Origin: a virus
UHGV virus genome: UHGV-0096231
Reading direction: 5' to 3' (one strand)
Length of the DNA: 40,810 nucleotides
This document shows, piece by piece, positions 20,025 to 24,788 of the stretch. A program made the translations under genes and the position numbers. Below the pieces are notes generated by a model. That model worked only from the letters and a program-made list of their open reading frames with translations, made no database searches and was not told where the DNA came from. Numbering within the stretch: the first letter of the stretch is position 1; every line of letters begins with the position of its first letter.

Positions 20025-20579
20025 ATGCTTATTGGCTATGTTCGCGTATCAACAAATGACCAGAACACCGATCTACAACGTAATGCGTTGAACTGTGCAG
20101 GATGCGAGCTGATTTTTGAAGACAAGATAAGCGGTACAAAGTCCGACAGACCAGGACTGAAAAAGCTGCTCAGGACATTATCGGCAGGTGACACGCTGGT
20201 GGTCTGGAAACTGGACCGACTGGGGCGCAGTATGCGGCATCTTGTCGTGCTGCTGGAGGAGTTGCGTGAACGAGGCATCAACTTTCGTAGTCTGACGGAT
20301 TCAATTGATACCAGTACCCCAATGGGGCGCTTTTTCTTTCATGTGATGGGTGCCCTGGCTGAAATGGAGCGTGAACTGATTGTTGAACGAACAAAAGCTG
20401 GACTGGAAGCAGCTCGCACACAGGGACGAATTGGTGGACGTCGCCCCAAACTTACACCAGAACAATGGGAGCAGGCCGGACGATTAATTGCATCAGGCGT
20501 TCCTTGCCAGAAGGTGGCGATCATCTATGATGTTGGTATATCGACACTGTATAAGAAGTTTCCGGTCGGAGATAAATGA
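20025..20579 (+). CDS. pin: DNA invertase (serine recombinase, Pin/Gin/Hin family)
   Basis: N-terminus MLIGYVRVSTNDQNTDLQ carries the catalytic serine motif of resolvase/invertase. 184 aa from the ATG at 20025 with AGGAGG RBS. C-terminal helix-turn-helix present. Same position as pinE in e14. Confidence 0.9.
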   Translation: MLIGYVRVSTNDQNTDLQRNALNCAGCELIFEDKISGTKSDRPGLKKLLRTLSAGDTLVVWKLDRLGRSMRHLVVLLEELRERGINFRSLTDSIDTSTPMGRFFFHVMGALAEMERELIVERTKAGLEAARTQGRIGGRRPKLTPEQWEQAGRLIASGVPCQKVAIIYDVGISTLYKKFPVGDK

Positions 20580-20620
20580 AACCGTAGCACGTCGTATGCA
20601 AGAAGATCGTGCTGCGGTTT
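20578..20620. repeat. hairpin repeat, copy A
   Basis: accgtagcacg-(16 nt loop)-cgtgctgcggt imperfect inverted repeat directly after the pin stop. Shares the core gaaaccg.ag.cacgt.gtatgc with copies B and C. Confidence 0.6.
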
Positions 20621-20639
20621 ATGCTTATCACTTAAAGAC

Positions 20640-21464
20640 TCAAAAATTAGGTGAGTAACGGACCGGGGACATAGCTCCTTTTTTTCTTAATTCATCTGGT
20701 ATTTTTTTTCCAAGATAAAGATTTGCTATTTCAGGTGAGGCTTCTCGACCTTCAAAACCATAGCGAGAACTTTGTGTTGCCTCAAAGTCCGGATCCTCGT
20801 CCCAGTATTTCATCGTAGGGAAATTTTCACGTGTTGATTTGAGCCATTTATCAGCAATGAAAACCCCTCGAACGATCCCCCTTACAGTAGCAAGAATGAC
20901 TTCTGCTTGGCTGGCGCGAGAGACATTAATGCGCCAGCTAAATCGAACAGCATCATAAAGCTCTGAATCCTTTGCACTTCTGTTAACGGAAATCATTAAT
21001 GCTTTATGATGAAATGTTATGGTTTCGGGTTGATATGTTGCTATCAACTCTTTGACATGCGCGGCGCCGAATTCATTGCTGCCAGCACCATTCATGATAT
21101 TCGTTAACCCAGGGTAGGCATCAATAAGTGCTGCTTCAACTTCGTATGCCGTCTTTTCATCAGTCATTCCGTGTCGATGGATGACATGGATAACCTCAAG
21201 TCCTGCTAACCTTATTTCTCTAATTTGCTTTAGCTTGTTGCTCAGTAACTCGTCATCATCAGTCGCTGCCACTTCACCACGCATATGGGCAAATACGCGG
21301 TTACCTTTGCCTTTCCCTACATAGAAGGTGCTTCCGTCCCTCGGATCAATCAATCGGTATACATACCAGCCAAGGTGTTCAATTACTCCAGAAGGAAACT
21401 CAGTAATATCCATTTTGCAATATCTATGAATTATTTGTGAGACGTATATTAATGAACATTGCAA
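20640..21464 (-). CDS. GIY-YIG motif nuclease-family protein, solitary
   Basis: 274 aa. N-terminal [27 protein letters not shown] fits the GIY-(10-11 aa)-YIG pattern with a downstream Arg. The C-terminal roughly 170 aa is unassigned. AT-rich cargo gene. Confidence 0.5.
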
Positions 21465-21583
21465 GGGCTCACAACCAGTAGTGTTGAGAAAACCATCGGA
21501 GAAATGAGGCTAAGCCTTTGAATTTACATAGTACAAAAAAGATACTTTTCCTCATAATGTGAGCTAATTTTATGTTTCGTTTG

Positions 21584-21627
21584 ATGATTGGACCGGTCTC
21601 GAAAACCGTAGGCACGTAGTATGCGTT
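21584..21627. repeat. hairpin repeat, copy B (partial)
   Basis: atgattgg ... gaaaaccgtaggcacgtagtatgc. Shares the atgattgg leader with copy C and the core with copies A and C. Lies in the divergent intergenic region between the GIY-YIG gene and the methyltransferase gene. Confidence 0.5.
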
Positions 21628-21774
21628 AATTTATGAACAAACTACTTGTCTGCTGTTTTTCTGTCATTAGTCGTATATAGAATGATTCTCTATGCCTAAC
21701 AAAGCATCACCAGTGCTAGATTACGTTGCAGTCACTGTTTAAATATCCAGATAAAACATTTCCTTCTGGGTTGA

Positions 21775-23250: not shown

Positions 23251-23284
23251 GAACACCTCCCGGCCTTTTAAGCCGGGAGTCAGC

Positions 23285-24499
23285 CTATGATAGTTCAGTG
23301 TAAAGTTCTATCAGCTCAGTAATGAATGCTCCGAGCGTTATTAATTCTTCTCTAACTGCTTCTGGGTATTTTTTATGTAAAGTTGATGGTACAACGAGTC
23401 TGACACCCGCATCTTTCATTTCTCGGTATTGTGCTGAAGAAACACCTTCTTGCAGCGTAAATAAATGTACCTGATGGATTTTATCTGCTTCATTCAGTAT
23501 CTGACGCCAGCGATCTTTGCAGGTGGTCTTTACTGCCAGCATACGTAAGTTTTCTACAGGAAATTCAGCGTTATGATATGCCTCTGCTGAAGGAAACAGG
23601 AAATCTGGTTTTTTATTACCTTCAGTAACTGCCTGAGTGGAGAAATGCCGTAGTCCGTGCTCGATAAAAAGCTTCTCTAGGTGAAGTTCAAGTGATTTAC
23701 CTGCCCTTGATTTACGTCGATTACTGACAGAGTTGGCTAATGCAATAAACTCATCTACAGAATCGAATCCTTTCTTAATAATATCAAGAACATGTAATTC
23801 CTCGACGAGTAGAAAAATATCATACTCGACACGCCGACGGTCAATCAGTTGCTCATCTGGATCCTTGGAGTTTTTAGCATAATGGCCAGCAGCATATTGA
23901 ATAATTTCGTTTCCAGAAGGAAAACGCTTCTTCCAGTCTTCAGGAATAACATATTTATGATTTACTGGAGTTTGCTGAAGAGACAATCCGCCCAAAATTT
24001 GTCCGGCTGGGCCGAAAATTAGGGTTCCAGGTATGATTTCGCCAATAGCAGACTCGATGAGATCCTCTTCATCGGGATTGACGCAGACCCATATATCTAC
24101 CTCGGAACAGTCAGTGTTCTGTTCGTTTAACCTGAAAGCAAGAATTGTGAGGGCTCCTGTATTTTCAGGGTTCTGTAATGGACTTCCTCTCCCCCAGCGC
24201 GTAATTCTTTTTTCGTTTCGGGTCTTACCAAAATAACGGTTGTTGTAATAAATTGCGCGTGCTTGGGTATCAGGGCAATCATGGGATGATACATGCGCAG
24301 TAAGGAAGACTGAAGGGTTCAGTTCGCGAGTATGATTGATAGATGGAAAAAGCTTTTCAACGATATTTGAGGGGATATAAAGTCCGACCTGATGGCCACC
24401 TGTTGCGCCTGTGTCGTTTGCAGAAAGGCGTTTGATGTAGATAAAGTAATTCCCGCTTGCGATATCAAGCAGCCAGTTATGAAAAACCGACATATACAT
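23285..24499 (-). CDS. ecoRIIR: type IIE restriction endonuclease (R.EcoRII-like)
   Basis: 404 aa. N-terminus MSVFHNWLL...YIKRLSANDTGATGGHQVGLYIP and the rest match R.EcoRII closely, from memory of that protein. Partnered with a Dcm-like methyltransferase. The true start may be the second Met. Confidence 0.85.
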   Translation of the reverse strand: MYMSVFHNWLLDIASGNYFIYIKRLSANDTGATGGHQVGLYIPSNIVEKLFPSINHTRELNPSVFLTAHVSSHDCPDTQARAIYYNNRYFGKTRNEKRITRWGRGSPLQNPENTGALTILAFRLNEQNTDCSEVDIWVCVNPDEEDLIESAIGEIIPGTLIFGPAGQILGGLSLQQTPVNHKYVIPEDWKKRFPSGNEIIQYAAGHYAKNSKDPDEQLIDRRRVEYDIFLLVEELHVLDIIKKGFDSVDEFIALANSVSNRRKSRAGKSLELHLEKLFIEHGLRHFSTQAVTEGNKKPDFLFPSAEAYHNAEFPVENLRMLAVKTTCKDRWRQILNEADKIHQVHLFTLQEGVSSAQYREMKDAGVRLVVPSTLHKKYPEAVREELITLGAFITELIELYTELS

Positions 24500-24570
24500 C
24501 CCTTTGTTAACATACAGTCAGGGTTAACATTTTTCCATAGTTATAGATAAGCGGCTAGGAACTTAAGGGA

Positions 24571-24603
24571 AAAACAAAAAGCCCGCATAAGCGGGCTTTT
24601 GTG
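24571..24603. terminator. bidirectional Rho-independent terminator-like hairpin
   Basis: aaaaacaaaaa-gcccgc-ataa-gcgggc-ttttgtg: a GC stem flanked by an A-run and a T-run. Lies upstream of the endonuclease start, between divergent genes. Confidence 0.5.
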
Positions 24604-24722
24604 TCACTCGAGAGCCGCGGCTCCTTTGCGTATCCTTTTTTGTCTCCTCACCGTCTGGTCGGTGTCCTGCTGAGACTGCTAACTTCCTGTTTTCGTTGGT
24701 GTTGTCCTTACACCGTTCAATC

Positions 24723-24788
24723 ATGATTGGTGGAGCTTGCGGGAGTTGAAACCGCAGCCACGTCGTATGCAAGAACGTGCTGCGGTTG
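24723..24788. repeat. hairpin repeat, copy C
   Basis: atgattgg ... accgcagccacg-(13 nt loop)-cgtgctgcggt. Same core as copies A and B. Confidence 0.6.

Follow-up and report, generated by a model that had tools for sequence, protein, structure and literature searches.

The boundaries of morons are said to be marked by terminators, as reportedly described by Juhala and co-workers in 2000, and stem-loops are likewise reported in the lambda literature for the sib/tI region of lambdoid phages. The modular theory of phage evolution, reportedly set out by Susskind and Botstein in 1978, is said to postulate linker or boundary sequences, and HK620 was reportedly treated in this light by Clark and colleagues in 2001. 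Tyrosine integrases, according to what Williams is said to have described in 2002, use attachment sites in tRNA and tmRNA genes with crossover at the T-loop. Here we compare these systems with an unannotated element in virus genome UHGV-0096231, of which a stretch of 40,810 nucleotides (the window) was analyzed. A repeat that an earlier, sequence-only reading had placed three times among cargo genes (copies A, B and C) proves to be hairpin H1, the first in a conserved unit of ~105 nt with two stems, H1 and S2.

Like moron terminators and sib/tI, H1-S2 is a stem-loop found where accessory genes end and downstream of int; phage HK97 has it directly beside sib, and copy A, lying between convergent genes, resembles a bidirectional terminator. 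However, each moron has its own terminator, whereas H1-S2 is one sequence across unrelated modules and phages, and it differs from both systems by a long loop (11-16 nt) and a second stem with an invariant loop; sib is also an RNase III site, for which the 12-bp H1 stem is too short. As with the linkers of modular theory, a short conserved stretch at junctions could guide homologous module exchange, but H1-S2 is a structured, covarying element at the tail-fibre/cargo/int-att junction and not in the early region, and its duplication around cassettes is directly visible. Copy C is preceded, as at tRNA and tmRNA attachment sites, by an attP arm and a tmRNA 3' end with the break in the T-loop/T-stem; its partner, however, is H1 instead of the tmRNA body, the cognate integrase is absent nearby, and the active attachment site is thrW'.

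Integron attC sites are likewise imperfect inverted repeats that fold into hairpins and separate successive cassettes, with structure kept more than arm sequence. H1 differs in lacking the R''/R' consensus (RYYYAAC / GTTRRRY) and IntI, in its conserved loop sequence, and in bracketing cassettes of mixed orientation with their own promoters; H1 as an integron attC was ruled out, with no core consensus in its arms, (G)AAACCGCAG...CTGCGGTT(GGCT) or ...GCGGCTGG, and no IntI. The REP/BIME elements of E. coli, which are linked to mRNA 3'-end stability and to rearrangements, are also multi-copy intergenic palindromes after genes, but they have no sequence similarity to H1-S2, which in every context examined occupied one specific position in phage or prophage DNA and has no RAYT transposase link. 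The element is missing from Rfam, a gap broken by 36 nt within CssrB (RF02799, a Shigella flexneri sRNA): the last 36 model positions are the H1 hairpin, the other 144 are one particular left flank, and S2 lies outside the family. Copies A (24.5 bits) and C (23.5-24.7 bits) fell below the gathering score of 76 for this 180-nt model. CssrB is a ~180-nt Shigella transcript validated by Northern blot, its hairpin being predicted as a rho-independent terminator (Peng et al. 2011, PMC3071730) and its 3' end predicted rather than mapped (PMC3071730).

Cargo genes and the three copies of the unit

The relevant part of the window contains the following features.

19989-20579, + strand: pin, serine DNA invertase (Resolvase and HTH_7 domains; stop TGA 20577-20579)
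20579-20620, no strand: copy A, H1 hairpin without S2 (-22.5 kcal/mol; 35.7 bits, H1 only)
20640-21413, - strand: cargo module 1, PD-T4-3/CMoRE (GIY-YIG; PADLOC PD-T4-3, E 4e-140; LEM-3_GIY-YIG)
21584-21603, no strand: leader of copy B, GATGATTGGACCGGTCTCGAAA, T-arm-like, with the 'atgattgg' common to the B and C leaders
21604-21624, no strand: copy B, left arm and loop of H1 only (no fold; 6.3 bits)
21817-23250, + strand: cargo module 2a, C5 cytosine methyltransferase, Dcm/EcoRII-type
23285-24499, - strand: cargo module 2b, EcoRII-type restriction endonuclease (EcoRII-N and EcoRII-C)
24573-24728, no strand: arm of an ssrA-targeting attachment site (in ~4200 E. coli genomes the DNA directly 3' of ssrA is ~90% identical to it, as is the attP arm of phage LLS)
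24729-24753, - strand: copy of the tmRNA (ssrA) 3' end, with acceptor strand, 3' T-stem and T-loop (...TTCAACTCCCGCAAGCTCCACCA), by alignment with the genuine ssrA of strain CE10
24750-24787, no strand: copy C, H1 hairpin of the complete unit (-20.9 kcal/mol)
24788-24851, no strand: S2, stem GGCTGG...CAGCC and a 33-nt loop that includes the near-invariant TTCGATAGTGCGAGTATTGAATGA, then the tail GTTATTGATTTTAC, completing the ~105-nt unit
26735-26779, + strand: thrW', 3' fragment of tRNA-Thr (thrW), present right-end attachment site of the prophage

The cargo consists of defence genes, PD-T4-3/CMoRE and an EcoRII-type restriction-modification (R-M) pair. PD-T4-3/CMoRE is a type IV restriction endonuclease of the GIY-YIG kind, with hmC-modified DNA as its target (PMC12923530); a homing endonuclease spreading by cleavage of H1 was ruled out for this gene, since the protein is that characterized restriction enzyme. 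The only recombinases detected in the window were pin and a P4-type integrase. H1 was also ruled out as a Pin crossover site: pix, gix and hix sites are 26 bp long with two AAACC half-sites 2 bp apart (AAACCnnGGTTT), while the half-sites in H1 are ~29 bp apart. The only perfect invertase-site match in the window is the pix site at 18418-18429, with a second pix-like site at ~19944-19969.

The gene positions given by the sequence-only reading (A after pin, B between the GIY-YIG and methyltransferase genes, C after the R-M pair) were borne out, as were the shared core and the hairpins at A and C, which are ~40 nt long. These two have in common an exact 17-mer (CACGTCGTATGCAAGAA) and both stem arms, and differ over ~43 nt by one substitution and two small indels. 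Copy A is a hybrid hairpin with a pin-type left arm CCGTAG and a right arm CTGCGG (T·G wobble on +). Its loop carries a 3-nt GAT insertion, and the hairpin has U-rich tails on both strands (UUUAUGCU on +, UUUCAUUU on -). The last base of the pin TGA is the first base of its stem, and it lies between convergent pin (+) and PD-T4-3 (-), ~20 nt from the stop of the latter. The energies listed above are those of the + strand, with z -5.6 for A; the - strand gave -16.3 kcal/mol for A and -20.0 for C, for which z was about -3.5.

The claim of three hairpin-forming copies thus stands for A and C, but B is a left half that gave no hairpin on either strand (z +0.2). Copy B is a truncated deletion relic: full versions are present in loci L011, L021, L034 and L069, and a deletion of ~80 nt removed the right arm and S2, so that the loop GTATGC is now joined to the 'after-unit' sequence TTAATTTATGAACAAACTACTTG. 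ARAGORN found no tRNA in its leader. A degenerate 21-nt core pattern, which misses copy A because A has no bulged base, hit only B and C in the 40.8 kb (expected 0.01; two hits in 0 of 100 shuffles). A covariance model of the full unit scored C at 125.5 bits (24747-24851) and B at E=7, with no further significant copies in the window. The three repeats are one full (C), one hairpin-only (A) and one decayed (B) copy, the unit being complete only at C. The ~105-nt unit, copy B as a deletion relic, the C leader as tmRNA 3' end plus attP arm, and cargo made up of known defence systems all go beyond the first reading.

Structure, borders and distribution of the unit

Across 18 pairs in two helices, pairing was 91.0% on the + strand and 93.8% on the - strand, leaving the strand of the unit ambiguous; slid controls were 23-53% paired. 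Both-sided changes occurred in 8 of the 18 pairs, in both stems, and the observed covariation was reached by 0 of 500 shuffles, with the caveat that the sequences are related and that, for H1, a dyad-symmetric protein-binding DNA site could give the same signal. The pairs of H1-S2 are kept by compensatory changes beyond controls, as is characteristic of structured RNA. In the S2 loop, 24 nt are almost invariant. The IMG/VR sample was chosen by a loop pattern, so that loop invariance in this sample is in part built in. Although open frames run through the unit, S2 variants have a 1-nt indel and the upstream sequences are unrelated, which speaks against a protein-coding explanation.

The borders of the unit are sharp: among 134 occurrences, at least 29 different sequences precede it, at least 10 follow H1 directly and at least 8 come after the complete unit. 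Hairpins whose arms do not match and S2 with arms of mixed type (copy A, the CCGTAG/CCACGG type and L123) are compatible with crossovers within the unit.

The unit was found in 5416 of 5426 complete E. coli genomes, at a median of 4 places each, and the element in 171 phage records, including lambda, HK97, HK106, mEp460, phiP27 and Stx phages; full units scored 99-129 bits in the nine sources searched. Every context examined lay in phage or prophage DNA, with the tail-fibre/invertase block on one side and the int/att module on the other; the unit always followed tail-fibre, tfa or pin genes and was close to int or att. The outcome that was to refute the first reading, a common chromosomal repeat with no positional association to cargo boundaries, therefore applies by half: the motif is very common, but the association held in every context examined. 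In HK97 a pin 3' remnant (GGGAGATAAATGA) precedes H1; the K-12 prophage Qin holds the unit ~180 nt from the prophage junction; and in L011, L039 and similar loci the unit lies downstream of int. Other cargo at the element includes a PD-T4-6-like kinase, an acyltransferase, DUF4145, SRAP, RnlAB and, in K-12, McrA. The K-12 e14 prophage was set aside as a reference locus, as mcrA occupies the same slot but H1 is absent. No description of the element was found in the literature on lambda ea47/ea31 and HK97 mosaic junctions.

Stepwise cassette gain and an attachment fossil

Related loci provide a presence/absence series. The empty site (pin-H1-S2) is found in L088, L060 and L012, a one-module stage (pin-H1-[PD-T4-3]-H1-S2) in L011 and L034, and the two-module stage in the window. 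The left flank is identical across L088 and L060, L011 and L034, and the window; the full B copy of L011 retains the right arm GCTACGAC of the empty site L088, and the crossover of the PD-T4-3 insertion maps within the H1 loop. In L021 and L069 the same cassette has an acyltransferase and a tmRNA fragment as left neighbors instead. The suggestion that the copies bracket each cargo module holds and generalizes, both through this three-stage series and in lambda, where ea47 is bracketed by a diverged H1 and a full unit. The empty and PD-T4-3-only stages show that the window order, pin-H1(A)-[PD-T4-3]-H1(B, decayed)-[EcoRII R-M + ssrA-type attP arm + tmRNA 3' end]-H1(C)-S2-...-thrW', is a nested accretion.

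Beside copy C, the tmRNA 3'-end copy is fused to H1 exactly at the T-loop, and the attP arm contains a bidirectional terminator hairpin (24577-24600). The 'atgattgg' leader shared by B and C, which the first reading had noticed, is real, and at C it is the DNA immediately 3' of the tmRNA copy. The same block adjoins genuine ssrA in CE10, and the window, CE10, strain 442/2 (a P2-like prophage) and the LLS attP are collinear to ...GGGAGTTGAA and divergent beyond. At 24739-24755 the sequence has the form of a T-arm-like att core, GCGGG-AGTTGAA-ACCGC, a match of form only, and homology to ssrA, the LLS attP and the P2-like junction stops there; in L009 this core is a perfect 7-bp stem. A whole tmRNA or tRNA gene at C or B was ruled out, as ARAGORN found none and the piece at C is a 25-nt 3' fragment of which Rfam matched only a 17-nt T-arm (5 bits, E 9). 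The tmRNA-like fragment occurs in at least seven sequence variants that meet H1 at one point and all have the flanking CCAATCATGATTGG in common; L067 and L089 have this joint a few bases away, within CCCGC. As the present attachment site is thrW', the ssrA-type site at C is a fossil, and its sequence shows that the R-M block began as cargo beside the att of a prophage that integrated at ssrA. The idea that H1-S2 forms the int-side arm of the ssrA-type attP is not supported by the intact prophage of JJ1886, which has no H1-S2 on that arm; the CE10 prophage is truncated. Judging by these att fossils (tmRNA fragment and thrW'), prophage ends may grow as one integration module replaces another and the old att-proximal cargo stays in place.

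Proposed transcript end and crossover point, and competing explanations

The reading that we favor, with about an even chance of being correct, is that H1-S2 acts as RNA where the late and int regions converge, as a transcript end or an insulator, and that its shared identity makes it a crossover point for module exchange. Many temperate coliphages have it at the distal end of the tail-fibre/invertase block, where rightward late or pin transcription meets leftward int or cargo transcription and accessory genes accumulate near att. As a stable stem-loop, H1 would terminate or protect transcripts, from either side when no S2 follows it, as in copy A, and a near-identical 40-100-bp island common to unrelated modules could allow crossover by phage or host recombination systems. 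Modules could then be gained, lost or swapped at the element, every gain leaving one copy per side. The H1 stem is G+C-rich, with 12-15 pairs and -20 to -22.5 kcal/mol, as expected of an intrinsic terminator, and the + strand after H1 is U-rich in all five H1-only right-flank classes; the - strand is U-rich in 10 of 31 left-flank classes (60 of 122 occurrences), with about two thirds of classes having no U-tract. Where S2 follows H1, the + strand has no U-tract, and the H1 loop of 11-16 nt is longer than in canonical intrinsic terminators; a terminator consensus scan, which accepts loops of 3-8 nt only, did not flag H1. Against this reading, a terminator role leaves the near-invariant S2 loop unexplained, the exact core that divergent copies offer for homologous crossover is short, at about 17-30 nt, and the fusion of the tmRNA fragment to H1 exactly at the T-loop indicates integrase action, rather than homology, for at least that joint.

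That joint is central to an alternative we consider unlikely, in which H1 is a site-specific recombination site, either a pseudo-att for tRNA/tmRNA-targeting tyrosine integrases or a dedicated cassette site, and the repeats would record successive integrase events. An ssrA-type attP (cargo-arm-tmRNA 3' end) would recombine at H1, and later homologous resolution would leave only the att-proximal cargo joined to H1-S2. The 5' edge of H1, TGAA|ACCGCAG, mimics the ssrA T-loop/T-stem TGAA|CCCGCGT, the collinearity described above ends where ssrA-type crossovers occur, and the tmRNA-like variants at nearly the same joint, its T-arm-like core, the fossil in a prophage that now uses thrW', and perhaps the T-arm-like leader of copy B as another relic, would all be consistent with such events. 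However, an integrase is absent from the cargo block and its flanks, a tRNA-like fragment is missing from the majority of left flanks (pin, phiP27 L57, tfa and others), the PD-T4-3 crossover lies inside the H1 loop and not at its edge, the intact ssrA-integrating lambdoid prophage of JJ1886 lacks H1-S2 on the int side, and the tmRNA variants, which have a flank in common, would be explained equally well by one old event plus drift. A stronger form, to which we give little credence, makes H1 a dedicated, structure-recognized site for the capture and shuffling of defence cassettes by temperate coliphages, a counterpart of attC or a built-in decoy att for tRNA/tmRNA-type integrases; the order of cassette captures could then be read from the stack of H1 copies in a prophage.

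The two covarying stems and the near-invariant loop would also be consistent with a small regulatory or cis-acting RNA (e.g., a sib-like retroregulator) with its function in the S2 loop, the repeats being gene copies or fragments traveling with modules; this we find rather improbable. The unit adjoins sib in HK97 and lies downstream of int elsewhere, and CssrB, with its ~180-nt Northern band, matches in part (24.7 bits, E 0.0065, model positions 145-180), but that score is far under the gathering score and covers the terminal hairpin only, H1-only copies (A and the first lambda copy) lack S2, the strand is ambiguous, and no conserved promoter was found. Inspection by eye of six after-unit classes gave a single possible -10 (TAAAAT), on the - strand, and no consistent -35, and an independent sRNA gene driven by a promoter of its own on the - strand was rejected on this ground; the prophage sRNAs already described (Pas sRNAs, AgvB and AsxR) have a different genomic context, and no Rfam match to these or to other prophage sRNA families was found. 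Of the options offered by the first reading, recombination footprint and shared terminator or structured RNA are both compatible with these results and are combined in the favored reading, whereas a free-standing small RNA gene is the least supported because of the missing promoter. It is very improbable that the copies are inert relics, an old 3' flank of the invertase/tail-fibre cassette spread with tail-fibre genes and duplicated by chance rearrangement. The pin remnant before H1 in HK97 implies that the unit traveled with pin, and copy B decayed without apparent harm, but conservation of the element extends to almost every E. coli genome and to phages of unrelated types, with compensatory changes in two helices and sharp borders against more than 25 different flanks, which argues for selection on the element itself.

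Returning to H1-S2 as a transcript end and crossover point, the element marks the borders of defence-gene cassettes and probably helps to create them. If this reading is true, one unannotated ~105-nt element would mark the accessory-gene hotspot of many E. coli prophages, lambda included, and would be a landmark for locating their cargo, largely anti-phage defence genes, and for delimiting cassettes. It would also provide a concrete, testable example of the long-postulated 'linker' for the exchange of phage modules.

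Repeat copies and cargo modules in the window

The window holds an e14-like, Mu-tailed E. coli prophage with 99.9% identity to one in strain B20127, and its two cargo modules, PD-T4-3/CMoRE, which acts against hmC DNA (PMC12923530), and an EcoRII-type restriction-modification (R-M) pair, lie among three copies of a repeat (A, B and C).

Features of the window
19989-20579: pin, serine DNA invertase
20579-20620: repeat copy A
20640-21413, minus strand: PD-T4-3/CMoRE, GIY-YIG type IV restriction enzyme (PADLOC E 4e-140)
21604-21624: repeat copy B
21817-23250: C5 cytosine methyltransferase
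23285-24499, minus strand: EcoRII-type restriction endonuclease
24750-24787: repeat copy C
25258-26238, plus strand: 326-aa ORF, between the repeat unit and the thrW' att site
26735-26779, plus strand: 45-nt 3' fragment of thrW (tRNA-Thr), present right end of the e14-like prophage
26945-28159: integrase of a P4-like element

The sequence-only reading had proposed three copies of a hairpin-forming repeat; their positions were confirmed on the sequence, and computed folding energies bore out the hairpins of A and C, while B showed no fold (z +0.2, RNA folding against shuffles). Folded as RNA, A reached -22.5 (plus strand) and -16.3 kcal/mol (minus strand) and C -20.9 and -20.0 kcal/mol, all well below shuffles. 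A and C have an exact 17-mer and the two stem arms in common, and a degenerate 21-nt core pattern matched B and C only (expected 0.01). A is a hybrid hairpin whose left arm is of the pin type and whose right arm is of the CTGCGG type, with GAT inserted in the loop; its stem starts on the final base of the pin stop codon (20577-20579).

The P4-like integrative element lies directly after the thrW fragment (region 26460-40810), forming a tandem array with the e14-like prophage at thrW, and also carries Ash, AntA/AntB and a TOPRIM-DUF927 primase. Adjoining isrK (30581-30658, plus strand, 67 bits) and C4 antisense RNA (30721-30808, plus strand, 79.5 bits) matches within it are presumably a P1/P7-type antirepressor control module. 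The 326-aa ORF had no family match in Pfam or PADLOC; its position suggests an additional cargo or defence gene. Left of the cargo, 18418-18429 (AAACCTTGGTTT) and approximately 19944-19969 (TTCTCCCAATTGAACGTTTATGAAAA) are probably pix crossover sites of an invertible tail-fibre segment. Where the methyltransferase and endonuclease genes converge, a separate hairpin at 23255-23286, cccggccttttaagccggg, is probably a bidirectional terminator common to both.

Extent, structure and distribution of the H1-S2 unit

Alignment of 54 distinct sequences revealed a unit of about 105 nt, in which the hairpin, H1, is followed by a second stem, S2 (GGCTGG...CCAGCC), and then by GTTAYCGATTTTAC; the 33-nt loop of S2 contains a near-invariant TTCGATAGTGCGAGTATTGAATGA, and loop invariance is forced in the set of loci that was collected by loop pattern. 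A covariance model of the unit scored 125.5 bits for C, 35.7 for A (H1 only) and 6.3 for B, with no further significant match anywhere in the window. Across the 18 pairs of the two helices, 91.0% were paired on the plus strand and 93.8% on the minus strand, H1 pairing slightly better on the minus strand (94% vs 89%) and S2 equally on both. Eight pairs had changed on both sides, examples being C-G replaced by U-A in 14 distinct sequences and A-U replaced by G-C in 8; the observed covariation value was reached by none of 500 shuffles, slid registers gave 23-53%, and RNAalifold returned -8.5 kcal/mol for the plus strand and -15.0 for the minus strand.

The unit matched 171 phage records (blastn, 61-nt query), including lambda, HK106, mEp460, HK75, phiP27 and many Stx phages, as well as at least 120 loci in an IMG/VR pattern scan and 5416 of 5426 complete E. 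coli genomes (median 4 places, maximum 11). In K-12, some 180 nt separate the Qin unit from the prophage/ydfJ' junction; in e14, mcrA occupies the same slot and H1 is absent. HK97 has one copy only, between tfa and sib; a pin 3'-end remnant equivalent to A's left flank precedes it and C's right flank comes after it, so that HK97 resembles an empty site. About 90 nt past the unit (24851-24935; ...TCCTCCCACCGATCCTCCATG...CTGCTATGTGCC) are also kept in lambda, phi458 and several IMG/VR loci, and may be a further non-coding element or promoter region.

Unit borders, a putative fossil att site and accretion

The 134 occurrences show at least 29 unrelated left flanks, each stopping no more than a few bases from the H1 stem, as well as at least ten different sequences immediately following H1 and at least eight following the unit as a whole. 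Among the left flanks are two types of invertase 3' end, the ends of phiP27 L57 and of tfa, and a tmRNA-like fragment in several variants. Where two copies occur, cargo sits between them, and the integration module is on the right side of the unit.

Arrangement at compared loci
L011 and L034: pin-H1-[PD-T4-3]-H1-S2
L021 and L069: acyltransferase-tmRNA'-H1-[PD-T4-3]-H1-S2
L082: H1-S2-[334-aa ORF]-H1-S2, second S2 partly deleted
HK97, right of the unit: sib-attP-int
L011, right of the unit: P4-type int about 90 nt away
L039, L064, L082 and L127, right of the unit: dusA-linked int
Qin and phiP27, right of the unit: prophage end

Lambda (NC_001416; locus L005) has a diverged H1-only hairpin right after tfa, within 22,568-22,663 (L005 3569-3664; 34 bits), and a full unit at 24,157-24,261 (L005 5158-5262) between ea47 and ea31, bracketing ea47 in the same way as PD-T4-3 in the window. 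Elsewhere, cargo near the unit includes a PD-T4-6-like kinase, an acyltransferase, DUF4145, SRAP and several unknown proteins, and RnlAB in JJ1886.

On the left of C, 170 bp (24573-24745) match sequence lying immediately 3' of ssrA, the tmRNA gene, in about 4200 E. coli genomes, and also the attP arm of phage LLS. In strain CE10, an e14-like prophage remnant that adjoins a genuine ssrA gene terminates with the same block of PD-T4-3 and R-M genes. The window, CE10, E. coli 442/2 and LLS are collinear through ...TGGTGGAGCTGGCGGGAGTTGAA and then diverge, the window running on with ACCGCAGCC..., which is H1. This collinearity indicates that the R-M block was formerly att-proximal cargo of an ssrA-integrating prophage; it is fused to H1-S2 at the T-loop, the crossover place of ssrA-type integrases. 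The junction sequence, GCGGG-AGTTGAA-ACCGC, is shaped like a T-arm core, and at the same point H1 adjoins at least seven variants of the tmRNA-like fragment. C carries a putative fossil att site.

Other elements occupy ssrA-type sites. In 442/2 (L132, 9900-12300), where several are stacked at a single site, a P2-like prophage with integrase and CI has entered at an ssrA 3' fragment immediately right of the same R-M block, and the PD-T4-3 gene is cut by IS3 copies. E. coli JJ1886 (L135, 930-3400) has an intact lambdoid prophage at ssrA in which the RnlA/RnlB toxin-antitoxin pair separates a pin remnant from the ssrA arm; the ssrA 3' end has been displaced to 46649-46671, on the far side of int, a Dam methylase and an AAA ATPase. 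Its cargo is in the same slot and its int side is without H1-S2, which argues that the tmRNA'|H1 joint is not simply the attP of the ssrA-integrating lambdoid family.

The window is best described as a nested accretion. The 45-nt pin flank of A is identical in three pin-H1-S2 loci (L088, L060, L012), and in L011 a complete copy follows PD-T4-3 and retains the right arm GCTACGAC of L088. B, the counterpart of that copy in the window, has lost its right arm and S2, its loop (GTATGC) being joined directly to TTAATTTATGAACAAACTACTTG, the sequence found after the complete unit of L082 and, less closely, in phiP27. The hybrid H1 of A, further mismatched-arm H1 hairpins and a mixed S2 in L123 are compatible with crossovers within the unit.

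Possible role of the unit

We infer that H1-S2 is a transcript-end or insulator element, since it lies where rightward late or pin transcription meets leftward int or cargo transcription. A stands between the stop codons of the convergent pin and PD-T4-3 genes with U-rich tails on both strands, and among all occurrences the plus strand is U-rich in every H1-only context and the minus strand in half. The same hairpin was predicted as the rho-independent terminator of CssrB, an approximately 180-nt Shigella transcript detected on Northern blots (Peng et al., PMC3071730), which also favors this role. Against it are the long H1 loop, the absence of a U-tract where H1 is followed by S2, and the invariant S2 loop, which such a role leaves unexplained. 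The apparent covariation of H1 could also come from a dyad-symmetric protein site, an explanation less likely to apply to S2, where 33 nt separate the two arms.

Membership of CssrB itself was rejected, the Rfam model matching the hairpin with its last 36 positions only (24.7 bits, well below the gathering score), and an attC site, a pix site, a REP element and a tmRNA gene were each ruled out. By analogy, H1-S2 may be likened to moron or operon boundary terminators, or to the 'linker' sequences of the modular theory of phage evolution. Modules may be exchanged at it by homology or through a recombinase. The unit carries no annotation in lambda or HK97, and no description of it was found in the literature searched. 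At the prophage defence-cargo hotspot, H1-S2 is an unannotated landmark that is very common and conserved in structure.
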